50,471 nt of DNA from the NCBI GenBank assembly GCA_034660595.1, contig JAYEJO010000011.1, positions 3,071-53,541 of the forward strand, written 5' to 3'. Of this stretch, positions 24,155-50,471 are shown piece by piece. Under the pieces are notes generated by a model, which did not search any database, was not told where the DNA came from, and worked only from the letters and a program-made list of their open reading frames with translations. How positions within the stretch are numbered: position 1 is the stretch's first letter; each line of letters opens with the position of its first letter. The DNA is from Candidatus Caldatribacteriota bacterium. Its GTDB lineage: Bacteria; Atribacterota; Phoenicimicrobiia; Phoenicimicrobiales; Phoenicimicrobiaceae. Position numbers and translations under genes: made by a program.

Positions 24155-25591
24155 ATGATAGGTGGTTTACCAGGAGGTCAATACAAACCTCTTTCACCCG
24201 ATGGAATCAAAGATATTCATAACACATCACTTCGACTTTTGGAAAACGTTGGCATGGAAGTAAACTGTAAAGAAGCATTAGATATATTTAAAGAAAAAGG
24301 AGCAGAGGTTGATTTTGACAAACATATAGTAAAAATACCCCGTAAAATGGTAGAAGATGCTATTGACACAGCTCCTTCTAAGGTGATTCTTTACGGTAGA
24401 GAAGATAAACATAATCTTGTTTTAGAAGGTTCAAATGTATATTTTGGGACTGGTGGCACCGTTTTAAACGTACTTGATTGGGAAACTAATAAAAAGAGAC
24501 CTTCTGCTTTAAAGGATGTTGCGCAATTTGCTAAATTAGTTGATGCTTTGGATAATGCTCATTTTTATGTTTTACCCCTATATCCTACGGAATTATCTCA
24601 AGAAACAGTTGATGTAAATAGATTTTATGCCGGTATCTCCAATACCTCTAAACATATTATGGGTGGTATTTATGACAAAGTAGGTCTATTAGAGACTATT
24701 AAAATGGCAGAAGAAATTGCCGGGGGAGCAGAACAGCTAAGAAAACGTCCATTTGTATCTTTTATTACCTGTGTAATGAGCCCATTAAAATTAGAAAATA
24801 TTTATACCGAGTTTTTAATTGAGATTGCCCGCAAAGGACTGCCGGTAGCCTGTCCCAGCGAAGTTTTAACCGGTGCAACCGGACCGGTCACTCTGGCTGG
24901 CGATTTAGTTTTAATTAATGCAGAGACTTTGGCTTGTGTAACCTTGACTCAGTTAGTTAACCCCGGAACTCCGGTCATATATGCTTCAACCGCTTCTATT
25001 ATGGATATGCAAAAAGGTATTTACCTTGGAGCCGGAGCAGAGCCAGGTCTTATTAATGCTGGTGTAGCTCAATTGGCTCAAAATGTCAAACTTCCTTATT
25101 ATGCTACTGCTGGAATGTCTGATTCCAAGATTCCAGATGCTCAATCAGGATATGAATCAGCAATTAGTGCTTTGGCTGTAGCCCTGGCAGGAGCGAACTT
25201 TATCCATGATGCAGTTGGAAATTTAGAATTTTGCATGACTATCAGTTTTGAAAAAGCAGTAATTGATAATGATATTTTGGGGATGGTTATGCGAATGGTG
25301 CAAGGTATTAAAGTAGATAAAGAGACTTTAGCAGAAGATTTAATTGCTAAAATTGGTCCAGCCGGGAATTTCCTTGCCGAAATGCATACAGTACAAAATA
25401 TGCGTAAAGAATTATATTTCCCCACTCTTGCAGATCGTCAGCATAGAATTGAATGGGAAAGTTTAGGCAGCAAAGATACAAGAACCCGAGCACGCGAAAA
25501 GGTAAAAGAAATTCTTACTAATCATAAACCACTACCTATTGCTCCCAAAGTATACCAAAAATTAAAATCAAAGATAAAAGGATTAATGTAA
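24155..25591 (+). CDS. MttB-superfamily methyltransferase, non-pyrrolysine (quaternary amine:corrinoid, MtgB-like)
   Basis: 478 aa, uninterrupted with no in-frame TAG. Family-typical N-terminus (YKPLSPDGIKDIHNTSLRLLENVG) and C-terminus (GNFLAEMHT). AGGAGG ribosome-binding site. Confidence 0.85.
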   Translation: MIGGLPGGQYKPLSPDGIKDIHNTSLRLLENVGMEVNCKEALDIFKEKGAEVDFDKHIVKIPRKMVEDAIDTAPSKVILYGREDKHNLVLEGSNVYFGTGGTVLNVLDWETNKKRPSALKDVAQFAKLVDALDNAHFYVLPLYPTELSQETVDVNRFYAGISNTSKHIMGGIYDKVGLLETIKMAEEIAGGAEQLRKRPFVSFITCVMSPLKLENIYTEFLIEIARKGLPVACPSEVLTGATGPVTLAGDLVLINAETLACVTLTQLVNPGTPVIYASTASIMDMQKGIYLGAGAEPGLINAGVAQLAQNVKLPYYATAGMSDSKIPDAQSGYESAISALAVALAGANFIHDAVGNLEFCMTISFEKAVIDNDILGMVMRMVQGIKVDKETLAEDLIAKIGPAGNFLAEMHTVQNMRKELYFPTLADRQHRIEWESLGSKDTRTRAREKVKEILTNHKPLPIAPKVYQKLKSKIKGLM

Positions 25592-25650
25592 TTTATAATT
25601 ATATAACATAGATGAAATATTAGATAATATTACAATTTATTCAAAAAAGT

Positions 25651-25679
25651 TTGAAATATTGGGTATTGTATATTATAAT
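25651..25679 (+). promoter_or_regulatory. candidate promoter of the opu ABC operon
   Basis: TTGAAA (25651-25656), 17-nt spacer, TATAAT (25674-25679), about 85 nt upstream of the permease start. Confidence 0.45.
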
Positions 25680-25764
25680 AAATTAACAATATTTAAATTA
25701 GATAATTATTAAAGATTGATTGATAAACCATAAAAATAATAAATAGATAGAGGAAGAAATAACT

Positions 25765-26445
25765 ATGCTGGAAACTTGGAGTTATATAAATTCACATTGG
25801 GGCTTGGTTGGTCATTTGATTTTGCAACACTTAGAAATGGTTATTTTAGGGTGTGGGATTGGCGTAGTTGTCGGAGTTATGTTGGGAATATTTATTTCTG
25901 AAGAGGGAAGAGAGGGAATTGCAGAGTTAATTCTATATCTTGCTGAAATTATGATGACTATACCTAGTTTAGCTCTCTTTGGCTTGTTGATACCAATTTT
26001 AGCCGCATTGCACTTACCTGCTCTTGGACTTCTTCCTGCTGTTATTGCTTTAGTTGCTTATGGACTGTTGCCTATTTTACGAAATACTTATACAGCGATA
26101 CGAGAGGTTGACCCCGCAATAATTGAAGCTGGACAGGGGATGGGTATGAGCAAAAAGCAAATTATGTATAAGATTAAATTACCCCTTGCGGTACCTGTAA
26201 TTATGGCTGGTTTAAGAAATGCCATTGTATTGAACATAGGCATTGCAGCAATCGCTGTGGTTATAGGAGTAGGAGGATTGGGTGTACCCATATTTCGAGG
26301 AATAAGAAATTTTCGTTTTGATCTTATTCTTACCGGCGCGATATTTGTTTCCATTTTGGCTGTAATAGCTGATACTTTTTTAGGTTTCATTGAGGAAAAG
26401 ATAACTCCAGAGGGGTTAAAAAAAGCTAGAGGTGTTAACTTATGA
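25765..26445 (+). CDS. ABC permease, OpuCB/ProW-type (betaine/choline/carnitine class)
   Basis: About 6 TM helices. EAA-loop EAGQGMGMSKKQIMYKIKLPLA. Confidence 0.85.
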   Translation: MLETWSYINSHWGLVGHLILQHLEMVILGCGIGVVVGVMLGIFISEEGREGIAELILYLAEIMMTIPSLALFGLLIPILAALHLPALGLLPAVIALVAYGLLPILRNTYTAIREVDPAIIEAGQGMGMSKKQIMYKIKLPLAVPVIMAGLRNAIVLNIGIAAIAVVIGVGGLGVPIFRGIRNFRFDLILTGAIFVSILAVIADTFLGFIEEKITPEGLKKARGVNL

Positions 26446-27572
26446 TAAAATTTGAAAACATAACCAAGATTTACCCAGGTGGCATTGAAGCAGTTAAAGA
26501 TATAAGTTTTGAGGTTAAGAAAGATGAGTTTTGTATTCTTCTTGGTCCTTCTGGATGTGGTAAGACAACTACCATGAAAATGGTTAATCGATTGATTCCT
26601 ATTACTAAGGGGAAAATATATATCGATGGGCAGGATATTATGGAGATAGACAAAAATGAACTTCGAAGAGGTATAGGGTATGCGATTCAACAAATAGGTC
26701 TCTTTCCTCATATGACTGTTAAGGAGAACATACAGACTGTCCCCGTATTGAGAGGATGGTCCCAGGAAAAGATGGAGAAAAGAGTAAAGGAACTTATGCG
26801 TCTTGTGGGGTTGGATCCCTCTATATACCTGGATAAATATCCTGCTGAGTTATCTGGTGGGCAAAGGCAGAGAATTGGTGTAGCCCGGTGTTTAGGTGTC
26901 GATCCCCCTCTTCTACTAATGGATGAGCCCTTTGGAGCCATTGATCCTATAAATAGGGAGAAATTGCAGGATGAATTTCTAAAGATACAAATGGAAATAA
27001 AAAAGACTATTATATTTGTAACTCATGACCTTAATGAAGCCGTTAAGATGGGGGATAAGATTGTCTTAATGAAAGAGGGAGAGATAGTTGAGTATGATAC
27101 ACCTGCTAATTTGCTCTACAAGCCAAAAAATGATTTTGTAAGGAATTTTGTTGGTGCTGATCGAGTTCTTAAGGGATTACAGCTTATAAGGGTAAAAGAG
27201 GTTATGGATAGCTCACCTAAGACAGTAAGAGCAGATGAAAAGATAACCAGAGCTAAGAGATATATGGAGGGAGAGAAAATTAAATGGCTGATGGCAGTCG
27301 ATGATAACCATACCTTTTTGGGTTGGGTTGGCAAATCAGATCTTAGTGACAAAAATGCGGAAAAAGTTAGAGATATTATAATTCCTACGATTACTTCAGC
27401 TACTCCTAATACACCTTTAAATGAGGCTCTTTCACTTATGTTGGGCAGTGCAGTAGGAAATGTGGCTATACTTAATGACCAGGGTAAATTAGAAGGAGTG
27501 GTGAGGTTTGATTCTATCCGAAAAATTTTAAAAGATGTGAAGAAGTCTTACAATAAAGAAAAGAAAGGTTAA
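26442..27572 (+). CDS. ABC ATPase with C-terminal tandem CBS domains (OpuCA/ProV-type)
   Basis: Walker A GPSGCGKTT, signature LSGGQRQR, Walker B LLLMDEP and a ~130-aa CBS-like tail. ATGA overlap with the upstream permease. Confidence 0.9.
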   Translation: MIKFENITKIYPGGIEAVKDISFEVKKDEFCILLGPSGCGKTTTMKMVNRLIPITKGKIYIDGQDIMEIDKNELRRGIGYAIQQIGLFPHMTVKENIQTVPVLRGWSQEKMEKRVKELMRLVGLDPSIYLDKYPAELSGGQRQRIGVARCLGVDPPLLLMDEPFGAIDPINREKLQDEFLKIQMEIKKTIIFVTHDLNEAVKMGDKIVLMKEGEIVEYDTPANLLYKPKNDFVRNFVGADRVLKGLQLIRVKEVMDSSPKTVRADEKITRAKRYMEGEKIKWLMAVDDNHTFLGWVGKSDLSDKNAEKVRDIIIPTITSATPNTPLNEALSLMLGSAVGNVAILNDQGKLEGVVRFDSIRKILKDVKKSYNKEKKG

Positions 27573-27573
27573 A

Positions 27574-28302
27574 ATGAAACGTCGAATTGCTTTATTTATT
27601 TTTTTAGGAATTCTTATAGGTATAACTATATGGATAACAAATCTTGAGATGCTAAAATTTAGGCCACCTGCTACTTATGGGGAGCTAAGCGTAAGAATAA
27701 GTGAGCATCTTAGTATGGTAGGCCTGGCAGAAATTATTGCTATCAGTGTTGGTATTCCGTTTGGCATTTTAGTTAGTCGTCCTAAGTTTAGAAGGATCTC
27801 TCCTGTGGTGATGGGTGTAGTCAATGTTGGTCAAACTGTTCCAAGTATGGCAGTAGTTGCTATCGTAGCGGTAATTGTAGGGGGCTTTGGTTTTGCTCCG
27901 GCGGTTATCGCTCTTTTTGTATATGGATTGCTTCCTATTGTACGCAACTCATATGCTGGAATAAAAAATATTGATCCTTCAATTATAGAGTCAGCAAGAG
28001 GGATGGGTATGTCTAAAAGACAGATTATCTGGAAGATAGAACTTCCCCTTGCCAGACGTGTAATAATGGCTGGGATTAGAACGTCAACAGTTGTAAATAT
28101 TGGTACAGCTACATTAGCTGCGCTTATAGCAGCAGGTGGATTAGGAATGGTTATACTTGCAGGCTTGCTTAATAATATACCTTTATTGTTGCTTCAAGGG
28201 GCTGCTCCAACGGCTGCATTAGCAATAACTCTTGACGCCCTACTGGGAACAATAGAAGAATGGATGACCCCCCGGGGTTTAAAGATTAAAAGAGGGGCAT
28301 AA
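27574..28302 (+). CDS. ABC permease, OpuCD-type
   Basis: Paralogue of the 25765 permease. EAA-loop ESARGMGMSKRQIIWKIELPLA. Confidence 0.85.
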   Translation: MKRRIALFIFLGILIGITIWITNLEMLKFRPPATYGELSVRISEHLSMVGLAEIIAISVGIPFGILVSRPKFRRISPVVMGVVNVGQTVPSMAVVAIVAVIVGGFGFAPAVIALFVYGLLPIVRNSYAGIKNIDPSIIESARGMGMSKRQIIWKIELPLARRVIMAGIRTSTVVNIGTATLAALIAAGGLGMVILAGLLNNIPLLLLQGAAPTAALAITLDALLGTIEEWMTPRGLKIKRGA

Positions 28303-28303
28303 T

Positions 28304-29215
28304 ATGAAAGGAGTCACTCTCAGTTTAATTCTGATAATTTTTCTATTTTCTTTTTTGACGGGATTCCCCTCTTTTGCTCAAAATCATATAACTATAGGGA
28401 TTCAAGATTCTATACAACAGGAAATCCTTGGACAAATAATAGGAAATTATTTGAATGAAAACGGCTTTGAGGTGAAATACAATGTAAATCTATCTAATCC
28501 ATCTTTATATAGTGCACTTACTCAAAAACAGGTTGATCTTGCCTGGCTGGATCCTGCTTCAGTTTGGTTTCTCAAATATCTAAAGACAGATATTTTATCA
28601 TCTGAGGAGCTTTATAAAAAGATTAAAGAATTAGAGAAGAAGGAAGGACTTTTATGGTTCGAGACAGTCGACCTTGAAAACCAATATGTAGTAGTAATGC
28701 AAAGGGAAAAATCGAAGGAGTTGGGGATAACGACTATTTCTGAGTTAGCAGATTATGTGAGGATAAATCAAAAAAAAATTAGAGTGTCAATGAGCTCTGA
28801 ATTTTTCTTCCGTCCTGACTGTTATTTCCACCTTAAGCAGATATATGGATTCTCTTTTTATAGACCAAATTTAAGCTTAGTTTCTCCGGCTGTAGGTTTT
28901 GGTTTACTTTCTGCTGGTCAAGTTAATGTAGTCATAGCTTTTTCGACAGAACCTCTGATCGAAAAGTATAATTTAATCAAGCTTAAAGATGATAAAAAAT
29001 CTCTTAAATCTTATTCTGTAGGGATTATCGTTAGAGAAAAAATAATAGATAGATTTTCTAATTTATCTGGATTGGTTGATAAATTAAGCAGAATATCCTT
29101 ATCTACTTCAAAACTAAAAAAGTTAAATTTACGAGTTTATGAAGGGGAATCTCCAAAGGAACTTGCTCGGGAATATCTTATCAAGAAAGGCTTAATTGAC
29201 ATTAAGCGAGAATAA
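28304..29215 (+). CDS. substrate-binding protein 1 (OpuAC/OpuCC-fold, divergent)
   Basis: Signal peptide (LSLILIIFLFSFLTGFPSFA). Its position in the opu operon and loose similarity to the next gene support the call. Confidence 0.65.
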   Translation: MKGVTLSLILIIFLFSFLTGFPSFAQNHITIGIQDSIQQEILGQIIGNYLNENGFEVKYNVNLSNPSLYSALTQKQVDLAWLDPASVWFLKYLKTDILSSEELYKKIKELEKKEGLLWFETVDLENQYVVVMQREKSKELGITTISELADYVRINQKKIRVSMSSEFFFRPDCYFHLKQIYGFSFYRPNLSLVSPAVGFGLLSAGQVNVVIAFSTEPLIEKYNLIKLKDDKKSLKSYSVGIIVREKIIDRFSNLSGLVDKLSRISLSTSKLKKLNLRVYEGESPKELAREYLIKKGLIDIKRE

Positions 29216-29296
29216 AATTTATAAGGAGGTGGTGATATAGATTAATTTGAGAAATGAGAAAAGAAAAGATGATTTTATTATTTAAGGAGGTAAAAA

Positions 29297-30250
29297 ATGA
29301 AAAAGTTATTTAGTTTGATAGTGATATTAATCCTGCTCTTCGGAATGACCACGGTTGGTTTGTTAGCCGCTGAAAAACCTACTATAGTTGTAGGAAATAA
29401 AAACTTTACCGAGGAATATTTAGCAGGTGAATTGATGAAACAGATTTTAGAAGATAGAGGATTTAAGGTTGAATTAAAATCTGATTTATCTTCTATGATT
29501 ATGAGAGAGGGAATGATGACGGGAAATATTGATGTTTGTATGGAGTACACCGGAACTGCTTGGATGGTCCATCTTGCAAAGACATATACTCCGACAGGAC
29601 ATGAAGAACTTTACTATATGACTAAAGCAGGGGATGCTGCCAACAAGATGGTATGGCTACAACCAATGTGGAACCATAATAGTTATGCTCTTGCTGTATG
29701 GGCTGACTTTGCCGAAGAAAACAATATAGAATCGCTTTCTGATTTTGCAGCTTTTAGTAATCAGAAGAAGGGGAAAATTAAAACTTTTATCGATTTTGAA
29801 TTCTCTCAACGTCCGGATGGCTGGCCAGCCCTACAAAAGGCTTATAACTTTAAAATTGATAAAGGTTCTCTTAAAAGTGCAGCTCCTGGAGCTTCTTTAA
29901 TAGCTTTGAAGAAACATGAGGTTGATGTAGCAATGGTCTTTGCAACTGATGCTTCAATAGCGAAATATGGTTGGGTGGTTTTAAGGGATGATAAAAACTT
30001 CTTCCCCCCCTATGATTTAACTCCTGTCGTAAGAGCAGAGATTCTGGAGAAGTATCCTGAGGTTGGAATTGCGCTTAATGAATTGGTGGCTGCATTTTCC
30101 AATGGTTCAGGCGTTCCCTTTACTACAGAGAAGTTAGCTAATGCTCAAAGGATATGGCAGTGGTTAAATGGAAAAGTTGATATAGAGAAAAAAGATGCAG
30201 CTGAAGCTGCCCATGATTTCTTAGTCGAACATAATTTGATAAAAGGTTAG
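29297..30250 (+). CDS. substrate-binding protein 2 (glycine betaine/choline-binding, OpuCC-like)
   Basis: Signal peptide. KNFTEEYLAGEL...YTGTAW and aromatic-rich segments are typical of betaine-binding proteins. AAGGAGG ribosome-binding site. Confidence 0.8.
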   Translation: MKKLFSLIVILILLFGMTTVGLLAAEKPTIVVGNKNFTEEYLAGELMKQILEDRGFKVELKSDLSSMIMREGMMTGNIDVCMEYTGTAWMVHLAKTYTPTGHEELYYMTKAGDAANKMVWLQPMWNHNSYALAVWADFAEENNIESLSDFAAFSNQKKGKIKTFIDFEFSQRPDGWPALQKAYNFKIDKGSLKSAAPGASLIALKKHEVDVAMVFATDASIAKYGWVVLRDDKNFFPPYDLTPVVRAEILEKYPEVGIALNELVAAFSNGSGVPFTTEKLANAQRIWQWLNGKVDIEKKDAAEAAHDFLVEHNLIKG

Positions 30251-30320: not shown

Positions 30321-30383
30321 AATAGTTTAAATAATGATAAAAATAAAGGAAGATAAAGACTTTTCTTGAAAAGGTAAAAAGAT

Positions 30384-32222
30384 ATGTTTGGATATAATGG
30401 CAGGATATTAGAAGTTGATTTAAGCAATCGAAAAATAGTTATTTCGAGATTAGATGAAAAAAACGCCAGGAATTACATCGGCGGAAGTGGTTTGGCAGCT
30501 AAAATTATTTATGATGAAACTTCACCAGAGATAGACCCTTTAAACTCCCAGAACCTTTTAGTTTTTATGACGGGACCTTTCACCGGTACGGTTATACCTA
30601 CTTCTGGAAGACATGCCATTGCCGCCAGGTCTCCCCTTACAGGAATCTGGGGTGAAGCTGATGTAGGGGGGAGTTGGGGAATAAGTTTAAAAAGAGCGGG
30701 CTACGATGGAATTAAAATTAAGGGAGCATCCAAAACTCCTGTATATTTATGGATTCACAGTGGAAAAGTAGAAATAAAGGATGCAAAGCACCTTTGGGGC
30801 ATGGATACTTATAAAGTAAATGATTTATTAAAAAAGGAAACGAATGAAAGAGCTTCAGTCGCCTGCATTGGGTTAGCAGGGGAGTCGCTTGTAAAATTTG
30901 CCTCTATAATGCATGATGGTAAAAATGCTCGAGCTGCGGGAAGATGTGGTTTAGGGGCAGTAATGGGTGGAAAGAAACTAAAAGCCATTGTAGTTCAAGG
31001 GGGAGAAAAAACTAAAATTAGAGATAAAGAAGGGCTGAAGAGACTTGTAAAAAAACTTATTCCTCAAATGAGAGAGGAAACTGCTTATCTGGGAAATTAT
31101 GGGACCACAGGTTCGACAGCGGAGGAAGAGGAAATAGGCGATCTTCCCATCAAAAATTGGCGTCAGGGAAAGTGGGAAGATGGCGCAAAGAAGCTTTCGG
31201 GGCAGACTTTGTTGGAGACAATCTTTTCTGGAAATTATCATTGTCCGACCTGTCCTATAGGATGTGGCAAAGAGGTTAAAATTAGAGAGGGGAAATATAA
31301 TGGAGTGGATGGAGCGGCGGCAGAGTATGAAACAATTGGTACTCTTGGCTCTCTCTGCCTGGTGGATAATTTAGAAGCTGTTTCTCTAGCTAATCAACTT
31401 TGTAACCAATATGGAATGGATACTATCTCTACCGGGGCAGCTATTGCTTTTACTATGGAAGCTTATGAAAAGGGTCTAATCGGCTCATCCGATTTGGATG
31501 GTTTGGAATTAACCTGGGGGAATGCAGATGCTATGGTAGAAATGGTGAGAAGAATTGGCGAGCGCAATGGTCTGGGCAGGCTTTTAGGAGAGGGTGTGAG
31601 AAAAGCAGCTGAAGAAATTGGAGGAAGAGCTTCTGAGTTTGCTATTCACGTGAAGGGATTAGAACTTCCTGCACACGACCCTCGGGCTTTTTATAGTTTA
31701 GCTCTTGGTTATGCTACTTCTAATAGAGGAGCCTGCCATCTGCAAGCTTATTCGCATCCCTTTGAACGTTGGATAGCTATGCCTGATTTGGGTTATTCAG
31801 AATGTCTACCTCCACATATTGAGAAAGGGAAAGCCGAGTTAGTAATGAAATTACAAAATCTTATGTGCATGTTTGATTCACTAAAGATATGTAAATTTAG
31901 CATGTATGGTGGTATTGAACCTCATCATCTTGTAGAATTATTAAATTTAGTAACTGGTTGGGATGTAAATTTGAAGGAATTTATGCGAGTAGGAGAGCGT
32001 TTATTTAACTTGAAAAGGTTGTATAATGTGAAATGTGGAATAAACAGAAAAGATGATATCCTTCCTTCTCGATTGCTTACTCAGACCAGAGGAGAGGGAG
32101 GAGCTTCCGATACCCTGCCCTATTTGGGAAGAATGTTGAGCGAATATTATAAACTTAGAGGATGGGATGAAAAAGGAATTCCTTTGAGCAGTAAATTGAA
32201 AGAGATGGGTTTAAATGTATGA
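30384..32222 (+). CDS. aor: aldehyde:ferredoxin oxidoreductase (tungstopterin AOR family)
   Basis: 612 aa. N-terminus MFGYNGRILEVDLS...GGSGLAAKI and [4Fe-4S] ligand region YHCPTCPIGCGK. Family-typical length. Confidence 0.9.
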   Translation: MFGYNGRILEVDLSNRKIVISRLDEKNARNYIGGSGLAAKIIYDETSPEIDPLNSQNLLVFMTGPFTGTVIPTSGRHAIAARSPLTGIWGEADVGGSWGISLKRAGYDGIKIKGASKTPVYLWIHSGKVEIKDAKHLWGMDTYKVNDLLKKETNERASVACIGLAGESLVKFASIMHDGKNARAAGRCGLGAVMGGKKLKAIVVQGGEKTKIRDKEGLKRLVKKLIPQMREETAYLGNYGTTGSTAEEEEIGDLPIKNWRQGKWEDGAKKLSGQTLLETIFSGNYHCPTCPIGCGKEVKIREGKYNGVDGAAAEYETIGTLGSLCLVDNLEAVSLANQLCNQYGMDTISTGAAIAFTMEAYEKGLIGSSDLDGLELTWGNADAMVEMVRRIGERNGLGRLLGEGVRKAAEEIGGRASEFAIHVKGLELPAHDPRAFYSLALGYATSNRGACHLQAYSHPFERWIAMPDLGYSECLPPHIEKGKAELVMKLQNLMCMFDSLKICKFSMYGGIEPHHLVELLNLVTGWDVNLKEFMRVGERLFNLKRLYNVKCGINRKDDILPSRLLTQTRGEGGASDTLPYLGRMLSEYYKLRGWDEKGIPLSSKLKEMGLNV

Positions 32223-33285: not shown

Positions 33286-33384
33286 TATTATTTTATAGTT
33301 TTACTTGCATTATAACAATAATTAAAGTATAAGTAGAAGTAATAAATATAAATTCAAAAATTAAAATAAAAAAGGAGAAGGATT

Positions 33385-34833: not shown

Positions 34834-34846
34834 GAGTTATGAATAA

Positions 34847-35740: not shown

Positions 35741-35766
35741 CTCTTTTTATGACAAAAATTGCTATT

Positions 35767-35813
35767 AAAATAGAACAATAGAAAAAATATATTTTTTTCT
35801 ATTGTTCTATTTT
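35767..35813 (+). terminator. 21-bp perfect AT-rich palindrome after the C-N hydrolase gene
   Basis: AAAATAGAACAATAGAAAAAA / TTTTTTCTATTGTTCTATTTT with a 5-nt loop. It separates the mttB2 unit from the corrinoid/hdr unit. Confidence 0.55.
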
Positions 35814-35953
35814 AATTCCCCCTTTATAATCCCTTTAAGCATATTTTTTAAAAAAGCAAGATTTTACCTAATAATGCAATCATGTCTATAGCATTAATAT
35901 TTTTTATTTTATAAAATGAATCAAGTTTTAAATATTATTAAGGAGGTAATGTT

Positions 35954-36586: not shown

Positions 36587-36651
36587 GTATCAAATTACTT
36601 ATACACAACAACCATTAATTTTTAATTTGATATAAGCATTAATTAGAAGAT

Positions 36652-39724: not shown

Positions 39725-39796
39725 ATAGGTCAGATACAGATAGTTAAAATTATAAGTTTTGCAGTTAATAATTTTAAGGAAGGATTAACATTATCT

Positions 39797-40222: not shown

Positions 40223-40246
40223 TATTTTCTAAGGAGGAAAGCAAAT

Positions 40247-41080: not shown

Positions 41081-41098
41081 TTATCACGGAGGTTTGGA

Positions 41099-44000: not shown

Positions 44001-44149
44001 ATAAAAAAGATAAAGTTGCCAAGGTAAATCCGGCTTTATGTAAAGGTTGCGGGACTTGTTGTGCTGCATGTCCTTCCGGAGCGGTTGAATTAAAAGGATT
44101 TAGAAAAAAACAAATATTGTCTATGATAGACATATTTGCGGAGGTATAA
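41099..44149 (+). CDS. hdrA: HdrA-like flavoprotein, fused tandem form (1016 aa)
   Basis: Module 1 (aa 1 to about 440): IVGGGVAGIQAALDIAESG, DKTFPTNDCSMCILSP, inserted ferredoxin, FIQCVGSRD...CSSVCC. Module 2: EPRIGVFVCRCGINIASV, VASCSPRTHE...NIRDQCSWVH, second GxGxxG (VIGGGLAGMEAA), MIQCVGSRD...CSRVCC, terminal CAGCGLCEAVCP...CKGCGTCCAACP. Confidence 0.85.
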   Translation: MGKHANNHVLIVGGGVAGIQAALDIAESGYKVNLIEAGPSIGGDMAKLDKTFPTNDCSMCILSPRLVAAARHPNINIITSTQVREIKGEAGDFKVKIFKKARYVDLAKCTGCGACTQVCPIKIDDEYNQNLCKTKNIHIPYPQAVPLAAIIDPERCLYLTKNRCRACERACTAKAIDFSQKDKEIILEAGAIIFAPGTKHFNPKEKPEYGYGRYPNIITSMEMERILSASGPTSGEVNRISDNNYPRKIAFIQCVGSRDTSCGNEYCSSVCCMYATKEANIIKEHNKDIDVSIFFMDMRAYGKDFEKYYEKAKNELNVKYIRSMPSSIEEIGINNDLLLKYETPEGETKKEIYNMVVLSIGLTTSPEFKHLFRKFNIKLDENGFCKTSFNNPLKTSREGIYVCGTFQGPKDIPETVVQASGAAAEVAEILSVPQKKELNNIEEIKERDIGNEEPRIGVFVCRCGINIASVVDVPKVVEYCKSLKNVVFVMENMYTCSQDSQEIIKQKIKEHNLNRVLVASCSPRTHESLFQQTLKEAMLNKYLFEMVNIRDQCSWVHAKEPEKATKKAKDLIKMGIAKASRLEPLEEISLEVTPRGLVIGGGLAGMEAALSLAEQGYQVYLVERENELGGNLKNLWFDPDGNIIEPFFKNLETRVDSHLNIKLFTNSTINNIEGSVGNFKTTIHKRQNNEIKEYKIEHGIIIVATGAKEYQGKEYLYSENKNVFTQLQLSEKLIKNKVNLENKTIVMIQCVGSRDEEHPYCSRVCCQKALQNALKIKEKFPDANIYMLYRDIRTYGFNEKYYNEARKKGVIFVRYEEENKPQVEEYIDKKGSKKLLISMRDILLQSELNIETDFIALSTGIVAPEDNFRMAQMLKVPINSDGFFLEAHVKLRPVDFSTEGIFLCGLAHAPKNMEESICQAKAAASRAGKILGKDSIIANGIVASVNEEICAGCGLCEAVCPYGAIEVDKKDKVAKVNPALCKGCGTCCAACPSGAVELKGFRKKQILSMIDIFAEV

Positions 44150-44151
44150 AA

Positions 44152-44568
44152 ATGTTTGAACCGAAAATTCTTGGATTTTGTTGTAACTGGTGTGCCTATG
44201 CAGGAGCCGATTTAGCGGGGATAAATAGAAATCAATACCCTCCCAATATTAGAATAATAAGAGTAATGTGTTCCGGAACAATTGACCCACTCTATATAAT
44301 GAAGGCTTTTCAAAAAGGGACAGATGGAGTATTTATTGGAGGTTGTCATATTGGAGATTGTCACTATCAAAACGGTAACCATCGAGCCAAAAAGAGAGTG
44401 GCTGTTGTTAAAAAGATATTGAGCTATTTAGGGATTGATCCTCGGAGAGTGAGGCTGGAGTGGGTTTCTGCTGCGGAGGGCCAAAAATTTGCTCAAGTAA
44501 TGAATGATTTTGTTGCTGAGATTAAGAGATTAGGGCCGAATCCATTAAAGAAGAGGTTTAAAGTATGA
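44152..44568 (+). CDS. mvhD: MvhD/FlpD-like [2Fe-2S] protein, copy 2
   Basis: ILGFCCNWCAYAGADLAG...VMCSGT...GTDGVFIGGCHIGDCHY. Starts 2 nt after the hdrA stop. Confidence 0.85.
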   Translation: MFEPKILGFCCNWCAYAGADLAGINRNQYPPNIRIIRVMCSGTIDPLYIMKAFQKGTDGVFIGGCHIGDCHYQNGNHRAKKRVAVVKKILSYLGIDPRRVRLEWVSAAEGQKFAQVMNDFVAEIKRLGPNPLKKRFKV

Positions 44569-45392
44569 TAAAGAAAGTGCAGGAATTAGCTAAAGAGTAT
44601 TTTGTAAACGGAAAAGTTGATGTAATCTTTGGTCTGAGGAAAAAAAATAGCCACGTAGCCCCTCATATTTTTAAAAAAATAGAGGAATTAGATTATTTGG
44701 TAGTTTCCCCTAAATATCCACTTTTATATAATTGCAGACCAAGTAAAAAGAATGTTATCCGGTTGATAGAGGAAAAATATCCAAATATAAAGATTGGAGT
44801 TATAGCTAAAGGGTGTGATGAAAGGGCTTTAATTGAACTTGCAAAAAGAGAGCAAATAGATATGAAAAATATTGAGATTTTGGGTGTTGCCTGCACTAGA
44901 GAAGAAGCAATAGAGTGCAGATGCCCAAGACCTTACCCTAATAATCCCCTTATAGGAGAGAAAGTCGAAGGGGTTTTTGAAGATAAAAATGTTGAAGACC
45001 TTTTAAATAAAGGTTTGTCAGAACGATTAACTTTTTGGCAATATCAACTAAGTAAATGTATAAAATGTTATGGCTGTAGAAACGCTTGCCCATTATGTTT
45101 CTGTCAGGATTGTGCTATGGAGCAGGAGGAGTGGTCGAAGACAGGTGAAATTCCTCCTGAAATTCCTATGTTCCAGTTTATAAGATTTTATCACCTTGCA
45201 GATAGATGTATTGAATGTGGAGAATGTGAAAAAGCTTGCCCCATGGATATTCCTCTACTGACTATTTCTAAACAAGTAAGGGAAGATGTTAAAGAATTGT
45301 TTAATTATGAATCTGGTTTAGATGTAAAGCAAAAATCACCGTTATTAACTACCTTAGATGAGATACCGATGAAAGAAGGAGTTAGCGAATAA
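44565..45392 (+). CDS. 4Fe-4S dicluster electron-transfer subunit (AsrA/HydB-like), probable Fdh partner
   Basis: KGCDERALIEL motif plus CIKCYGCRNACPLCFC and CIECGECEKACP. ATGA overlap with mvhD and TAATG overlap with fdhA. Confidence 0.65.
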   Translation: MIKKVQELAKEYFVNGKVDVIFGLRKKNSHVAPHIFKKIEELDYLVVSPKYPLLYNCRPSKKNVIRLIEEKYPNIKIGVIAKGCDERALIELAKREQIDMKNIEILGVACTREEAIECRCPRPYPNNPLIGEKVEGVFEDKNVEDLLNKGLSERLTFWQYQLSKCIKCYGCRNACPLCFCQDCAMEQEEWSKTGEIPPEIPMFQFIRFYHLADRCIECGECEKACPMDIPLLTISKQVREDVKELFNYESGLDVKQKSPLLTTLDEIPMKEGVSE

Positions 45393-47425
45393 TGGAATAT
45401 AAAAATGTACTTACAGTATGTCCATATTGCGGTTGCGGGTGTAATTTTTATCTGCAGGTTTTTGATGGAGAGTTGATTGGTATCCTTCCTTGTAAATCCC
45501 ATGTAGTTAGTCAGGGAAAGCTTTGTATCAAAGGTTGGAATGCGACTGATTTTGTAGTTAGTAAAGACCGGTTAACTAAGCCATTAATAAAAAAAGATGG
45601 AAAATTTGTCGAAATATCATGGGATGAGGCTTTAAATATAATTTCCGAAAAATTTAGAAAGTATAGTTCTGATGCTATTGCTGTTCTTTCATCTGCGAAA
45701 TGTACCAATGAAGAGAACTATTTAATGATGAAATTTGCTCGAGCGGTACTTAAGACAAATAGTGTTGATCACTGTGCTCGATTATGTCATGCCTCCACCG
45801 TTGTGGGTTTAGGAAAAACTTTTGGTAGTGGTGCAATGACAAACTCTATAGGAGAGCTCGAAGATGCAGATTGTATTTTTGTTATCGGCTCAAATACAAC
45901 AGAACAGCATCCACTTATAGCACGATATTTAATGAGAGCAAGAGAGAAGGGGGCAAAAATTATAGTTGCCGATCCCCGGCTTATTCCTTTAACTCAATTT
46001 TCCGATTATCATCTCAGACAAAGACCGGGAACAGATGTTGCTCTGCTTAATGGATTTATGAATGTAATTTTAAATAAAGGTTTAGAGGATAAAGAGTTTA
46101 TTGATAAGCGCACCGAAGGATTCAAAGAATTAAAAGAAATAGTTAAAAAATATAATCCGGAAGATGTAGAAAAAATAACCGGCATACCTAAAGAACTTAT
46201 TATTGAAGCAGCCAGAATATATGCAAAGGCTAAATCTGCCTCTATTGTATATTCGATGGGTATAACACAGCATACAACAGGTGTAGATAATGTTGTTTCT
46301 TGTGCAAATCTTGCCATGTTAACCGGCAATGTTGGCAAACCAAGTACAGGTGTTAATCCTTTAAGAGGGCAGTCGAATGTTCAGGGTGCATGTGATATGG
46401 GTGCTTTACCTAATGTCTACTCCGGATATCAAAAGGTATCTGATGAAAATGCCCGTACAAAATTTGAAAAAGCTTGGAATACAGAACTTCCTTCAAAGAC
46501 AGGATTGACTATTATAGAAATGTTAAATGAGGCTGCAAAGGGGAAGCTTAAAGCAATGTATATTATGGGTGAGAATCCCATGCTTTCAGATCCGGATATC
46601 AATCATGTTAAAAAAGCATTAGAGAATCTTGAATTTCTTGTTGTCCAGGATATGTTTCTTACCGAAACGGCTCAATTGGCTGATATTATACTTCCGGCTG
46701 CCTCTTATGCAGAAAAAGATGGTACATTAACTGCTACGGACCGTAGGGTTCAAAGAATAAGAAAAGCAATTGAGCCTATCGGCGAAAGCAAATCTGATTG
46801 GCAGATAATCTGTAAATTAGCAGGAAAGATGGGATCTCAAGAATTTAAATATTCTTCACCTGCTGAAATTATGGATGAAATAGCCTCTGTAACTCCCATC
46901 TATGGAGGTGTAGTATTTGAGCGAATTGAAGATATTGGATTGCAGTGGCCCTGCCCATCCAAAGAACATCCGGGGACGCCTTATCTACATAAAGGAAAAT
47001 TTAGTCGGGACAAGGGAAAATTTTTTGCAATAGAATTCAAGGAACCTGCAGAGCTTCCCGATGCTGATTATCCGTTTATATTGACTACAGGGAGAACTAT
47101 CTTTCATTACCATACGGGAACAATGACCAGAAAGACGGAAGCGCTAAACAGAGAGGTTCCCACAGGGTATATAGAAATTAATTCCAAGGATGCAGAAAAA
47201 TTAAATATTACCGAGGGAGAAAAAGTTTTTGTGAAAAGTCGTAGGGGAAAGATTGAGGTGAAAGTGTTGAAAACCGGAAAAGTTCCCGAGGGGGTAGTTT
47301 TTATTCCTTTCCATTTTACAGAAAGCCCTGCTAATATGCTGACTAATTCAGCTTTTGATCCTGTAGCGAAAATTCCGGAATTAAAGGTATGTGCAGTAAA
47401 GGTAGAAAAAAGAAAAAATATATAA
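45392..47425 (+). CDS. fdhA: formate dehydrogenase catalytic subunit (molybdo/tungstopterin), cysteine type, cytoplasmic
   Basis: N-terminal [4Fe-4S] motif CPYCGCGCNF...GKLCIKGW. Active-site context VDHCARLCHAST with TGT at 45785-45787 where FdhH has Sec. No twin-arginine signal. 677 aa. Confidence 0.9.
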   Translation: MEYKNVLTVCPYCGCGCNFYLQVFDGELIGILPCKSHVVSQGKLCIKGWNATDFVVSKDRLTKPLIKKDGKFVEISWDEALNIISEKFRKYSSDAIAVLSSAKCTNEENYLMMKFARAVLKTNSVDHCARLCHASTVVGLGKTFGSGAMTNSIGELEDADCIFVIGSNTTEQHPLIARYLMRAREKGAKIIVADPRLIPLTQFSDYHLRQRPGTDVALLNGFMNVILNKGLEDKEFIDKRTEGFKELKEIVKKYNPEDVEKITGIPKELIIEAARIYAKAKSASIVYSMGITQHTTGVDNVVSCANLAMLTGNVGKPSTGVNPLRGQSNVQGACDMGALPNVYSGYQKVSDENARTKFEKAWNTELPSKTGLTIIEMLNEAAKGKLKAMYIMGENPMLSDPDINHVKKALENLEFLVVQDMFLTETAQLADIILPAASYAEKDGTLTATDRRVQRIRKAIEPIGESKSDWQIICKLAGKMGSQEFKYSSPAEIMDEIASVTPIYGGVVFERIEDIGLQWPCPSKEHPGTPYLHKGKFSRDKGKFFAIEFKEPAELPDADYPFILTTGRTIFHYHTGTMTRKTEALNREVPTGYIEINSKDAEKLNITEGEKVFVKSRRGKIEVKVLKTGKVPEGVVFIPFHFTESPANMLTNSAFDPVAKIPELKVCAVKVEKRKNI

Positions 47426-47548
47426 CTAAAATAAAGAGAACACAAAGAGAAAATTACAAAAAATAACACTTGATATAACCTAATGTATTGTTAATAAAGA
47501 ATTATTTTTGGAAGAATAAATTAAGCAGTAGAAAAGGATTGTTTTATT

Positions 47549-48217
47549 ATGATAATAGCTAAAAGAAAACCAATAAAAGATATTTTGAAAATGATTGATA
47601 GAGATAAAAAGATATTATTGGTAGGATGTGGTACTTGCGTAACAGTTTGTTCAGCAGGTGGCGAAAAAGAAGTTGGTATTTTATCAAAGTTAATAAAAAT
47701 AGCTTTTCGTAAAGAAGGTAAATCTATACAAATTATTGAAAGAACTATTAAAAGACAGTGTGAAAAAGAATTTGTTGAAGAAATCCGAGAGGAAATTATT
47801 TCTTGCGATGCTGTTCTTTCTATGGGGTGTGGAATAGGAGTACAGACAATTGCTGATATGTTTGAAGATATTCCGATATACCCTGCACTGGATACAAGTT
47901 TTGATGGGATGCCTGAAGAGCAAGGAGTCTGGGTTGAATTATGTTCTTGTTGTGGTAATTGTATTTTAGATAAAACCGGCGGTATTTGCCCGATAACGAG
48001 ATGTGCCAAATCACTATTAAACGGACCTTGCGGCGGCTCTCAAGAAGGAATATGTGAAGTAGATAAAGATACGCCTTGTGCCTGGCAATTAATCTATGAC
48101 CGTTTAAAAAAACAGGGCAAATTAGATTCTTTAACAGAAATTGAACCTATTCGCGATTGGTCAGCAAGTAAAAGTGGCGGAGTAAGAAAGATTATAAGGG
48201 AGGATATAAAACTTTGA
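47549..48217 (+). CDS. metV: MetV (MTHFR C-terminal-domain Fe-S/zinc protein)
   Basis: LVGCGTCVTVCSAGG and CPITRCAKSLLNGPCGG motifs. TTGA-coupled to metF. Confidence 0.8.
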   Translation: MIIAKRKPIKDILKMIDRDKKILLVGCGTCVTVCSAGGEKEVGILSKLIKIAFRKEGKSIQIIERTIKRQCEKEFVEEIREEIISCDAVLSMGCGIGVQTIADMFEDIPIYPALDTSFDGMPEEQGVWVELCSCCGNCILDKTGGICPITRCAKSLLNGPCGGSQEGICEVDKDTPCAWQLIYDRLKKQGKLDSLTEIEPIRDWSASKSGGVRKIIREDIKL

Positions 48218-49131
48218 AAGCAGAAACAAATTTAGAAAAATTATTCAATCAAGACGAATTTGTAGTAACTGCTGAACTGGGACCTCCTAAGAGTGTAAGT
48301 ATTGAATTAATTGAAAAGAAAGCAAATTTTCTTCGTGATTGCGTAGATGCAGTAAATATTACAGATAATCAAACCGCAGTCATACGAATGTCAAGTCTGG
48401 CTACTTCTGTAATTGCAAAAAAAAACGGATTAGAGCCAATTTTGCAAATGACCTGTCGAGATAGAAATCGTATCGCCCTTCAAAGTGATATTATAGGAAG
48501 TGCTGCTTTAGGAATAAATAATGTTTTATGTTTATCTGGTGACCATCAAACTTTAGGGAATCATCCCGGAGCAAAGAATGTATTTGATATCGATTCTATT
48601 CAGTTAGTTTCCGTGCTTAAACATATGAGGGATGAAGCCATTTTTCAAAACAATGAAAAAATTAAATATCCTCCTAAGTTATTCATAGGTGCAGCGGCAA
48701 ATCCATTTGCCGATCCTTTTGAATATAGGGCCATTCGTTTGGCCAAAAAGATAAAAGCCGGAGCAGATTTCATTCAAACCCAAGCAATATTTGATGTGGA
48801 AAGATTTAGCAGATGGATGGAGGATGTCAGGAGAAGAGGATTACACAAGAAAGTTTATATTATGGCAGGAGTTACCCCCTTTAAATCATATAGAGCAGCT
48901 TGTTTTATGACTAACGTAGCCGGAGTAACAATACCAGAGGAAATTTTGGAAAGGATGAAAAATGCAAAAGACCAAAAAGCTGAAGGGATAGAGATATGCT
49001 TGGAGATTATTAAAAAAATAAGAAAGATAAAAGGAGTTCGGGGTCTTCATATTATGGCAGTAATGTGGGAAGATATTGTTTCTTTAATAGTTAAAGAAAG
49101 CGGATTATATCCTCGGCCAAAAATAATGTAA
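48214..49131 (+). CDS. metF: methylenetetrahydrofolate reductase
   Basis: TIM-barrel MTHFR motifs (VTAELGPPK, VNITDNQ, LCLSGDH, FIGAAANP, IQTQAIFD). TTG start overlaps the metV stop. Confidence 0.85.
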   Translation: MKAETNLEKLFNQDEFVVTAELGPPKSVSIELIEKKANFLRDCVDAVNITDNQTAVIRMSSLATSVIAKKNGLEPILQMTCRDRNRIALQSDIIGSAALGINNVLCLSGDHQTLGNHPGAKNVFDIDSIQLVSVLKHMRDEAIFQNNEKIKYPPKLFIGAAANPFADPFEYRAIRLAKKIKAGADFIQTQAIFDVERFSRWMEDVRRRGLHKKVYIMAGVTPFKSYRAACFMTNVAGVTIPEEILERMKNAKDQKAEGIEICLEIIKKIRKIKGVRGLHIMAVMWEDIVSLIVKESGLYPRPKIM

Positions 49132-49158
49132 TTAATTTTAAAAAAAAGGAGATTAGAG

Positions 49159-49971
49159 ATGATAATTATTGGAGAAAAACTAAATTCAGCAAGGAAAAAA
49201 GTAAGAGAGATGATTGAGAATAGAGATGTAGAATATATCCAGGATTTAGCTAAAAAGCAAGTAGAAGGCGGCGCTGATATTTTAGATGTAAATTCTTCTG
49301 CTGCAAGTGGCAATAAAGAAGAAAATATGGAATGGTTGGTAAAAACAGTGCAAGAGGTGGTAGATATCCCTTTATGCATTGATAGTCCTAATGCAGAAGA
49401 GATTGAAAAAGGCTTGGAAGTTCATAATTGGGACAAAGGCAAAGCTTTAATTAATTCGATTACCGGTGAGAAAGAAAAAATTGATAGATTATTACCTACA
49501 ATAGTAAAATATAAATGTGCGGTAGTAGCACTTGTTATGGATGAACGAGGTATTCCTGATAATTCCAAAGCCCGGGTTGAGATTGCCGAAAAATTAATAG
49601 AAGTATTAACTGATGCCGGAGTTCCTTTAAAAGACATATTTATTGATCCGTTAGTAGTGCCTATCGGAACTAATGATAAAAATGGCTTGATAACGATGGA
49701 AACTATAAGAAGCGTTAAGGAAGCTCATCCCGAAGTTAAAATAGTCACGGGTTTAAGTAATATATCTTTTGGTCTTCCGGAGAGAAAGCTAATTAATCAA
49801 GTCTTTATGATTTTGACTATGGGCTGTGGTATGGATGCAGCAATTATTGATTCTACAGATAAAAGAATGATGGCTATTATTAAGACTGCTACTACTCTTC
49901 TAGGAGAGGATAATTTTTGTAGTAAATATATCCAAGCCTATAGAGAAGGAAAATTAACTTTCGAAAAATAA
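49159..49971 (+). CDS. methyl-THF:corrinoid methyltransferase (pterin-binding, MtgA/AcsE-like)
   Basis: IIGEKLNSARK, LDVNSS, LCIDS, FIDPLV and GLSNISFGLP pterin-binding barrel motifs. AGGAG ribosome-binding site. Confidence 0.8.
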   Translation: MIIIGEKLNSARKKVREMIENRDVEYIQDLAKKQVEGGADILDVNSSAASGNKEENMEWLVKTVQEVVDIPLCIDSPNAEEIEKGLEVHNWDKGKALINSITGEKEKIDRLLPTIVKYKCAVVALVMDERGIPDNSKARVEIAEKLIEVLTDAGVPLKDIFIDPLVVPIGTNDKNGLITMETIRSVKEAHPEVKIVTGLSNISFGLPERKLINQVFMILTMGCGMDAAIIDSTDKRMMAIIKTATTLLGEDNFCSKYIQAYREGKLTFEK

Positions 49972-50023
49972 GTTAAAAAGAAGTGTATTACAATAAAAAA
50001 ATAAACATTTAGGAGGAAGTAAA

Positions 50024-50471
50024 ATGAAATCAGATCTACAGATTGCCCAGGAAGCTAAGTTAAAGCCGATTACTGAAATTGCAGAATCTATCGGAATAAA
50101 AGAAGATGAATTAGACCTCTACGGTAAATATAAAGCCAAAGTTTCACCTGATATCTTAAAGAGACTCAAAGACAAACCTCAGGGTAAATATATAGTGGTA
50201 ACTGCCGTTACCCCTACCCCACTGGGTGAAGGTAAAACAGTAACCTCCATCGGGTTAGGCCAGGGTCTGGCTAAAATAGGTAAGAAAGTAGTTAACACCT
50301 TACGAGAACCCTCGATGGGTCCGGTCTTCGGCATTAAAGGAGGGGCAGCCGGGGGAGGATATGCCCAGGTAGTCCCCATGGAAGACTTAAACCTTCACTT
50401 TACCGGAGATATCCATGCCGTAGGAGCAGCCAATAACCTGCTCTGTGCCATGTTAGATACTCACCTGCAGA
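50024..50471 (+). CDS. fhs: formate-tetrahydrofolate ligase, 5' part (runs off the window end)
   Basis: Not in the ORF track because there is no stop. ATG 7 nt after AGGAGGAAG. Translation [16 protein letters not shown]...[16 protein letters not shown]...[22 protein letters not shown] is classic Fhs. Confidence 0.9.

Follow-up and report, generated by a model that had tools for sequence, protein, structure and literature searches.

An HdrB-less Hdr-Fdh-MetVF gene block beside predicted quaternary-amine demethylation genes in JS1-type Atribacterota

The closest described relatives of the gene block analyzed here are the Hdr-type methylene-tetrahydrofolate (methylene-THF, CH2-THF) reductases of Moorella thermoacetica and Sporomusa ovata. 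These are encoded in the order hdrC-...-hdrA-mvhD-metV-metF, with a methyl-corrinoid:THF methyltransferase gene nearby, and combine MvhD with a fused, asymmetric HdrA pseudo-dimer that has an inserted ferredoxin domain in its first half only, an architecture also described for anaerobic methanotrophic archaea (ANME). What serves such reductases as electron donor or second acceptor has reportedly been an unanswered question since 2014, and purification as complexes is said to have failed for the enzymes of Moorella and Sporomusa. The 'Hdr-type' class was defined by Kremp et al. (2022), for whom the physiological donor remained unknown and in whose experiments S. ovata MetVF pulled down HdrA, HdrB, and MvhD. 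The block described here is located in a window of 50,471 nucleotides, meaning the whole stretch of DNA analyzed, from a JS1-type Atribacterota metagenome-assembled genome (Candidatus Caldatribacteriota bacterium, contig JAYEJO010000011.1, GenBank protein accessions MEA2086574-MEA2086593; window G+C ~33%). Judged by its sequence, the locus is a clade-specific variant of the Hdr-type methylene-THF reductase and of the Fdh/Mvh-Hdr family, with interchangeable formate/H2 modules and no HdrB at the locus.

Formate dehydrogenase (Fdh) and Mvh hydrogenase are known to be interchangeable on the MvhD/HdrA platform of methanogens, for example in Methanococcus. The methanogen FdhAB-MvhD-HdrABC complexes (PDB 7BKB, 9T1S/9SFI) share with the window homologous FdhA, FdhB iron-sulfur part, MvhD, HdrA domains, and HdrC ferredoxin domain. 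A further set of relatives has been predicted from genomes: hdrA/hdrL-mvhD-fdhB-fdhA loci were noted in Desulfobacterium autotrophicum in 2009, and HdrBCA-MvhD-FdhBA and HdrABC-MvhD-MetVF clusters have been described in marine Chloroflexi and Desulfobacula. A preliminary description of the window, which did not recognize its subunit combination as a characterized complex, was therefore right about the whole, as we found no paper describing the merged HdrB-less Hdr-Fdh-MetVF block, but not about its parts, since both partial combinations, hdrA-mvhD-fdhBA and metVF-hdrABC-mvhD, are known from genomes (PMC2702500, PMC5736913, PMC9430772).

The Hdr-Fdh-MetVF block and its relatives

The block forms the 3' part of a co-oriented array at positions 24155-50471, and every gene between 22342 and the end of the window is on the + strand, to which the coordinates below refer unless stated. 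Pfam and NCBIfam annotation gave the order PocR/AraC regulator, MttB1, OpuA importer, aldehyde:ferredoxin oxidoreductase (AOR)/Fe-type alcohol dehydrogenase (Fe-ADH), MttB2, CN-hydrolase, corrinoid protein, HdrA-like 427, HdrA-like 569, MvhD, 277-aa FeS protein, 1016-aa HdrA, MvhD, 275-aa FeS protein, FdhA, MetV, MetF, pterin-binding methyltransferase, and the start of Fhs. The inventory drawn up earlier (two MttB proteins, corrinoid protein, pterin methyltransferase, MetV/MetF, Fhs, FdhA, and two HdrA/MvhD modules) was recovered in place in these searches; it had omitted the OpuA-type transporter, the AOR/Fe-ADH pair, and the CN-hydrolase, its 'FeS' proteins are specifically HdrCx and FdhB', and its first 'HdrA' consists of two separate proteins, of 427 and 569 aa, that make up a split pair. 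The array is almost gap-free, as had been stated, with 1177 of 26317 nt (4.5%) intergenic. No terminator-like hairpin was found in any intergenic gap, and the promoter and terminator scans, being at the level of shuffled sequence, are uninformative on operon boundaries.

In this clade the conserved block reads corrinoid-hdrA'-hdrA''-mvhD-hdrCx-hdrA(tandem)-mvhD-fdhB'-fdhA-metV-metF-methyltransferase-fhs-ECF S-component-RACo activase, the last two genes (an ECF S-component and a RACo-type corrinoid activase after fhs) being seen in relatives. It was found on independent contigs whose tandem HdrA identity to the window's ranges from ~92% down to 73-74%, so the arrangement is not an assembly artefact. 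From hdrCx on, the block is the Moorella/Sporomusa operon minus hdrB and plus an inserted cassette. Among the hallmarks of the Hdr-type reductase, the window has metV-metF clustered and co-oriented with hdrA and mvhD, an enlarged two-half HdrA, and an HdrC with two [4Fe-4S] clusters; an HdrB with two CCG domains is missing at the locus. Three further differences from the Moorella and Sporomusa operons are a Cys-free helical tail on HdrC, the insertion of fdhB'A (mvhGA-hycI in a sister strain) between mvhD and metV, and an extra divergent split HdrA plus MvhD upstream.

The tandem HdrA (1016 aa; 41099-44149) is a fused pseudo-dimer, unlike the HdrA homodimer of the methanogen Fdh-Hdr complex, and matched the HdrA of M. 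thermolithotrophicus (PDB 5odc_A, E 4e-214) in three stretches. Residues 9-364 align to 5odc_A 146-497 (TrxR-like domain and inserted ferredoxin domain), 452-624 to 2-174 (N-terminal domain), and 834-1011 to 468-647, which includes the C-terminal ferredoxin domain. Half 1 thus carries FAD, the Cys197 equivalent (C60), the inserted ferredoxin domain, and a [4Fe-4S] cluster; half 2 has the N-terminal domain, FAD, [4Fe-4S], plus the ferredoxin domain at the C-terminus, without a Cys197 equivalent or inserted ferredoxin domain. The GxGxxG and CxGSRD...CC cluster motifs are present in both halves. Moorella HdrA contains an NfnB-like NADH module, whereas no NfnB-like insertion was found in the window's tandem HdrA. 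A relative at 74% identity (contig L009, 5325-9767) encodes a 1480-aa tandem HdrA with an NfnB/GltD-like insert (Fer4_20 + Pyr_redox_2), as in Moorella HdrA, so that NAD(P)H may be an additional substrate in that lineage.

HdrCx (277 aa; 40247-41080), whose stop codon lies 18 nt from the next gene, consists of an HdrC-like 2x[4Fe-4S] domain (residues ~5-125) followed by a Cys-free helical tail of ~150 aa. The domain matched PDB HdrC 8rvv_C (E 4.5e-21, residues 5-109) and contains two CxxCxxCxxxC motifs, C30-C40 and C75-C85. In the AlphaFold2 model the tail is a helical bundle (pLDDT 75-93); Foldseek recognized the HdrC domain alone and returned non-significant TPR-like helices for the tail. 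Full-length homologues were confined to this clade, at identities of at least 59%, and beyond it only ordinary HdrC proteins of 155-170 aa were found. A decayed CCG domain was considered for the tail and rejected, because hhalign to an HdrCB fusion covered only residues 2-107 and Foldseek found only the HdrC part. A QmoABC-type complex, suggested by two HdrA-like proteins with an HdrC-like one, was likewise rejected, there being no QmoC membrane domain and no apr genes; the QmoC model matched HdrCx over residues 13-127 only, with 85 bits against a cut-off of 300, and the tail is soluble, helical, and Cys-free.

The searches for CCG/HdrB cover the locus and window. Within that scope, no Pfam CCG domain was detected in the 277-aa and 275-aa FeS proteins even at E<=10 or in any other scanned window protein, a six-frame regular-expression scan of the window found no CCG motif, and an archaeal HdrB phmmer query matched none of the window's open reading frames (ORFs). 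The earlier statement that no window protein carries a CCG (HdrB) domain was thereby borne out. hdrB is also absent from the block on every contig of this clade that was examined. The locus is thus without HdrB, unlike most of its relatives; the HdrC-like subunit is kept, and only the CCG part is gone. The proposal that the core is plugged into FdhA and MetVF instead of HdrBC would therefore apply to HdrB and not to HdrC. The missing HdrB/heterodisulfide site, with the HdrBC module represented by an HdrC-like domain only, also sets the locus apart from the methanogen Fdh-Hdr complex.

The Fdh module comprises FdhB' (275 aa; 44565-45392) and FdhA (45392-47425), which follow the second MvhD paralogue (44152-44568; FlpD E 3.5e-58, VhuD 149 bits), the predicted [2Fe-2S] adaptor between HdrA and Fdh. 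FdhB' is a shortened FdhB-type polyferredoxin (PDB 9t1s_M, E 4.9e-38) that aligns to methanogen FdhB only at 81-125 and 242-375 and has no FrhB_FdhB Pfam match (PF04422, PF04432) at E<=10; alignment restricted to the iron-sulfur stretches implies that the iron-sulfur wire is kept and the FAD/F420-binding part, present in the methanogen protein, is lost. FdhB' is also 30% identical to a FlxC-like protein, and membership in the FlxABCD-HdrABC family fails on the lack of any homologue of FlxB or of the NAD(P)H/FAD subunit FlxA in the window. FdhA is a molybdo/tungstopterin formate dehydrogenase catalytic subunit (TIGR01591, 921 bits, cut-off 666) whose best solved relative is the Hdr-associated methanogen FdhA 9t1s_L (E 8e-257). 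Its active-site residues are present, including the PLRGQxNVQG motif, and Cys132 occupies the selenocysteine (Sec) position of the methanogen enzyme (CARLC132H vs CARLUH), in agreement with the Cys-type assignment made before. In one relative (L003, 6814-8852) fdhA is in two ORFs of 373 + 301 aa, with a break that is not at the Sec/Cys position: a frameshift, pseudogene, or assembly error. The claim of gaps of <=2 nt or overlaps was accurate for the window's junctions, which are +2 nt (hdrA/mvhD), -4 nt (mvhD/fdhB'), and -1 nt (fdhB'/fdhA); these four genes are translationally coupled.

The best computational support for FdhB'A working with this Hdr core comes from sister contigs. L096 and L092 have ~90% DNA identity to window positions 30369-44550 and 47460-49404, and between these segments mvhG-mvhA-hycI (L096 14308-17237; also in L092-L094) exactly replaces window 44551-47459, that is, fdhB'-fdhA. 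The breakpoints are in the last 18 nt of mvhD, which is encoded beside hdrA, and 35 nt past fdhA. The replacing genes encode a small subunit of VhuG type, a [NiFe] large subunit of VhuA type, and the protease HycI, and metV-metF follows directly. The exchange mirrors that of Fdh and Mvh hydrogenase in the methanogen complex and suggests that the locus exists for electron exchange with formate or H2. Homology, translational coupling, and the cassette swap all support the Fdh-MvhD-HdrA link drawn earlier, and an FdhB'A-MvhD-HdrA complex is very probably formed.

MetV (222 aa, 47549-48217) and MetF (305 aa, 48214-49131) are encoded with a 4-nt overlap at 47549-49131 (PF12225, PF02219). The pair stands directly 3' of the cassette in both alleles (fdhB'A and mvhGA-hycI) and in lineages at 73-74% HdrA identity. 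A PDB search gave no match for MetV, so the copy searched offers no structural precedent for a MetV-Hdr contact. Next come the pterin-binding, MtgA/AcsE-like methyl-corrinoid:THF methyltransferase (49159-49971; PF00809, and PRK07535 with 353 bits, cut-off 259) and the N-terminal 149 aa of Fhs, the formate-THF ligase (50025-50471; phmmer match to the full-length L001 FTHFS), whose gene is truncated by the window edge.

Upstream of hdrCx, the block contains a second, divergent module made of a split HdrA pseudo-dimer (427 + 569 aa; 36652-39724; NCBIfam HdrA2 positions 139-561 and 1-233, respectively) and MvhD paralogue 1 (39797-40222; PF02662 FlpD, E 5e-43), which is 34.5% identical to MvhD2. 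The pair copies the plan of the tandem HdrA in two pieces, the 427-aa part containing the TrxR-like domain with an inserted ferredoxin domain, yet shares only ~30% identity with every tandem HdrA, and its close relatives are confined to the clade. Comparing the window with L007, identity is 55% for the pair and 72.5% for the tandem HdrA, indicating that the split pair evolves faster. Its 569-aa part (38015-39724) has lost the CxGSRD...CC [4Fe-4S] motif, which both halves of the tandem HdrA keep. The 427-aa ORF at 36652 starts with GTG; GenBank and the sister contigs have 418 aa from a downstream start, so the GTG start is provisional.

To place the block among its relatives, one genome per GTDB species was scanned, and the resulting 80 loci, 79 of them non-Atribacterial, were annotated by phmmer with the window proteins plus reference HdrB, HdrC, and Flx queries. 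The commonest partners of tandem HdrA-MvhD were FlxCBA-like NAD(P)H modules. metV-metF was the partner at 20 loci (Desulfobacteraceae, Clostridia) and FdhB'-FdhA(Sec) at 12 Desulfobacterota loci, whose parts closely resemble the window's: besides two MvhD and one HdrC-type protein, they encode both a tandem and a split HdrA. Where a locus extended far enough to reveal it, the cluster mostly included a CCG-bearing HdrB or HdrCB. HdrB-less HdrC'-MetVF clusters initially appeared to be common in Desulfobacteraceae; this was rejected when TGA read-through showed the ~250-aa 'HdrC' ORFs to be the front halves of selenocysteine-containing HdrCB fusions with the CCG motif. In L014, L057, L033, and other Desulfobacterota, in-frame TGA codons occur in HdrA (Cys197 equivalent), both MvhD, HdrCB, and FdhA, at positions that are Cys in the window; genes of this kind are broken up by ORF callers, and HdrCB can then pass for a short CCG-less HdrC. 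At the Bathyarchaeia-type loci L005, L006, and L010, FlxC/B/A-like genes follow the tandem HdrA-MvhD and one or two GcvH genes flank it, which hints at a lipoyl-protein as thiol/disulfide substrate there.

The predicted HdrBCA-MvhD-FdhBA clusters of Desulfobacula toluolica Tol2, Desulfobacterium autotrophicum (loci V/VI), and marine Chloroflexi (DscP3) share with the window tandem and split HdrA, two MvhD, an HdrC-type protein, a shortened FdhB', and FdhA. They differ in having an HdrCB fusion with CCG motifs, in lacking metVF or methyltransferase genes nearby, and in encoding selenoproteins, with U at the HdrA Cys197 equivalent, in MvhD, and in FdhA.

Proposed electron flow and competing explanations

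We read the window as a quaternary-amine demethylation pathway beside a variant Hdr-type methylene-THF reductase operon that would carry out formate- (or H2-) linked, flavin-based confurcating oxidation of methyl-THF (CH3-THF), a reading that we regard as about evenly poised. The substrate would be imported by the OpuA-type transporter and its methyl group passed from an MttB-family methyltransferase to the corrinoid protein, then by the pterin-binding methyltransferase to THF. MetF would oxidize CH3-THF, and the electrons would travel through the iron-sulfur clusters of MetV and HdrCx to the FAD of the tandem HdrA, the cluster of the HdrA TrxR domain being the one predicted to lead to HdrC. 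At the FAD they would be confurcated with electrons from reduced ferredoxin entering via the inserted ferredoxin domain, and the merged electrons would reach FdhA by way of the C-terminal ferredoxin domain, then MvhD, and then FdhB'. At FdhA, formate would be made from CO2; where a sister strain has the MvhGA cassette, the product would be H2. CH2-THF would be oxidized further by a FolD encoded elsewhere, and Fhs would yield ATP. The methyl electrons are thus probably released as formate, and as hydrogen in the sister strain, although the exact confurcation scheme is offered tentatively. The adjacent AOR as the source of reduced ferredoxin is speculation.

The potentials concerned are -200 mV for CH2-THF/CH3-THF, about -450 to -500 mV for ferredoxin, and about -430 mV for CO2/formate. 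From these, the electrons of CH3-THF and reduced ferredoxin were calculated to average about -350 mV, and CO2/formate to lie at about -330 mV at ~10 µM formate and 30 mM bicarbonate. An average of about -350 mV would permit reduction of CO2 to formate only when formate is low, in keeping with a syntrophic way of life. Overall, the reaction would be CH3-THF + Fd(red) + 2 CO2 -> CH2-THF + Fd(ox) + 2 formate, likewise feasible only at low formate. As the block contains no CCG site, CH2-THF/CH3-THF at MetVF would be the only high-potential couple that it encodes.

Functional coupling of the FdhB'A-MvhD-HdrA core to MetVF is plausible and, on balance, moderately favored by the Moorella/Sporomusa gene order and by the position of metVF, kept in both cassette alleles and in distant lineages. 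Several observations weigh against confurcating oxidation by such a coupled complex. Fdh and MetVF types were merged in one co-oriented cluster at 0 of the 79 non-Atribacterial survey loci, and fdhA and metV lie 123 nt apart, with AT-rich DNA between them. MetVF of S. ovata can be purified by itself and works with reduced ferredoxin (Kremp et al., 2022), so that it may not need Hdr. The NfnB-like insert of the L009 HdrA could provide a second acceptor independently of MetVF. HdrABC and Mvh have been reported from other JS1 genomes (PMC6281690), and HdrBC could act in trans. Lastly, there are two HdrA/MvhD modules, and the second, divergent one is unexplained by the model.

The first three of these points, together with the ability of Clostridium ljungdahlii MetVF to function alone with reduced ferredoxin as the S. 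ovata enzyme does, can be accommodated by two independent enzymes in a shared operon: an Fdh-MvhD-HdrA(-HdrCx) complex with another acceptor, for which the NAD(P)H module of the L009 HdrA is a possible example, and a stand-alone, ferredoxin-dependent MetVF. We consider this arrangement unlikely. The window's own HdrA is without the NfnB insertion, and because the block holds no CCG or other high-potential acceptor, formate:ferredoxin bifurcation by such a complex would have no exergonic branch. The gene order is moreover that of the Hdr-type methylene-THF reductase operon, and the position of metVF survives the cassette swap.

The same complex could also run reductively, bifurcating electrons from formate or H2 to CH2-THF and ferredoxin and supplying methyl-THF for biosynthesis or acetogenesis. 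The homologous methanogen enzymes do run reductively (PDB 7bkb, 9t1s), and according to one study, Atribacteria have a Wood-Ljungdahl pathway that is both complete and expressed. Two genomic studies, on the other hand, found no CODH/ACS (CO dehydrogenase/acetyl-CoA synthase) in JS1, and in an organism reported to lack it methyl groups could only be oxidized. The conserved block also holds the methyl-donating parts (corrinoid protein, second methyltransferase, and RACo activase), and in the window substrate importers and MttB genes adjoin it, making the reductive direction quite improbable. A canonical Hdr-type complex, in which HdrB or HdrBC encoded elsewhere binds HdrCx/HdrA in trans with a disulfide/dithiol co-substrate, is very improbable, for although other Atribacterota reportedly have HdrABC genes and hdrB transcripts and most surveyed relatives have a CCG domain in the cluster, some behind in-frame TGA codons, the usual HdrB-contacting C-terminus is replaced in HdrCx by a helical domain conserved across the clade, and the block is without hdrB on every clade contig examined.

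Returning to confurcating oxidation of methyl-THF, a possible evolutionary account, put forward with reserve, is that in JS1 MetVF replaced HdrB as the high-potential terminus and docked via the new HdrC tail. Together with the interchangeable Fdh/[NiFe] cassettes, this would give a reversible supercomplex linking CH3-THF/CH2-THF, ferredoxin, and formate or H2.

Methyltransferase, transporter and flanking genes

The methyl-transfer genes resemble known MttB-superfamily systems (MtgBCA, MtcB, MtpB, MtyB, MthBCA) in combining a non-pyrrolysine (non-Pyl) MttB homologue, a corrinoid protein, a pterin-binding methyltransferase, and, in relatives, an activase; a complete MtgBCA-type set is present in the window. 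The known systems feed acetogenesis, whereas the methyl group here is apparently oxidized. MttB-family substrates now include trimethylamine, several betaines, and phosphocholine, and JS1 mttB genes have previously been annotated as mtgB.

MttB1 (24155-25591; PF06253, E 3.7e-115) has Met321 at the position equivalent to pyrrolysine in Methanosarcina barkeri MttB and no internal stop; MttB2 (33385-34833; PF06253, E 1.5e-116) has Leu there, and its gene is also uninterrupted, confirming that both are of the non-Pyl type. The two are 52% identical. MttB1 scored 510 bits against TIGR02369 (cut-off 525), 298 bits against M. barkeri MttB, and 285 bits against Desulfitobacterium hafniense MtgB; both copies resemble Pyl-MttB and D. 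hafniense MtgB to about the same degree and fall just below the Pyl-MttB equivalog cut-off. The Rfam model PYLIS_3 matched both mttB genes with 62-65 bits, at 25115-25214 and 34351-34450, beginning exactly at the codon that replaces UAG, AUG (Met321) and CUU (Leu), respectively. An RNA element was rejected: the model base pairs are broken, so the matches reflect coding-sequence conservation with Pyl-type mttB.

The corrinoid protein (35954-36586; B12-binding + B12-binding_2) is MtgC-like, with 242 bits against NF047996 MtgC, below the cut-off of 370, and its gene opens the conserved core block in L001, L007, and L009. The OpuA-type ABC importer (25765-30250) consists of a permease, an ATPase-CBS protein, a second permease, and two OpuAC binding proteins (Pfam BPD_transp_1, ABC_tran+CBS, OpuAC x2). 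It is followed by AOR (612 aa; AFOR_N/AFOR_C) and Fe-ADH (356 aa) at 30384-33285, whose genes overlap by 8 nt and are kept as a pair in L092-L096. Fe-ADH is below every NCBIfam cut-off, and its sub-threshold matches include the GbsB choline dehydrogenase; a route from a choline-like alcohol through the aldehyde to the betaine, yielding reduced ferredoxin via AOR/Fe-ADH, is conceivable. The carbon-nitrogen hydrolase (34847-35740; PF00795, E 2.6e-43), a nitrilase-superfamily amidase with no NCBIfam match over cut-off, is encoded directly after mttB2, as always in the sister contigs.

The whole 5' half of the array is retained in contigs L092-L096. This MttB/transporter/AOR half is not constant 5' of the block, and L001 has POR and acetyl-CoA synthetase genes there. 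The 'supercluster' of the preliminary description therefore holds as a conserved unit for the Hdr-Fdh-MetVF block and not for the MttB/transporter half. A PocR-sensor/AraC-type regulator (22342-23685; Pfam PocR + HTH_18/HTH_AraC) lies 5' of the array, and sister contig L092 likewise has this gene before mttB. Further 5', positions 13091-22084 hold genes for housekeeping and defence that are unrelated to the array: U32 peptidase, uracil-DNA glycosylase (- strand), LexA, PolX, an N6/N4 DNA methylase with a TdeIII-type restriction enzyme (16158-18513), and, directly before the regulator, a sodium:solute symporter (20549-22084, - strand). A rhaR-mtgB-polX synteny like the window's was described by Jitsuno et al. 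(2024), who linked mtgB-bearing JS1 clades to methane and did not mention Hdr.

Significance for JS1 Atribacterota

In thermodynamic terms, methyl-THF oxidation, at -200 mV, is the limiting step wherever the methyl branch runs in reverse: in syntrophic acetate oxidizers, complete-oxidizing sulfate reducers, and methylotrophic fermenters. The locus names candidate redox partners for this step, a formate dehydrogenase in one strain and an Mvh hydrogenase in a sister strain, and, being HdrB-free, offers a simpler system to express and assay. If the proposed coupling is true, the block would be the first case of an Hdr-type methylene-THF reductase with its missing redox partner genetically specified, and it would explain syntrophic methyl oxidation by subseafloor bacteria without CODH/ACS. 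Published proposals for JS1 have so far involved the release of methylamines or dimethylglycine only. The locus suggests that the abundant JS1 Atribacterota could instead provide methanogens or sulfate reducers of deep sediments with formate or H2 derived from the methyl groups of osmolytes (glycine betaine, choline-type).

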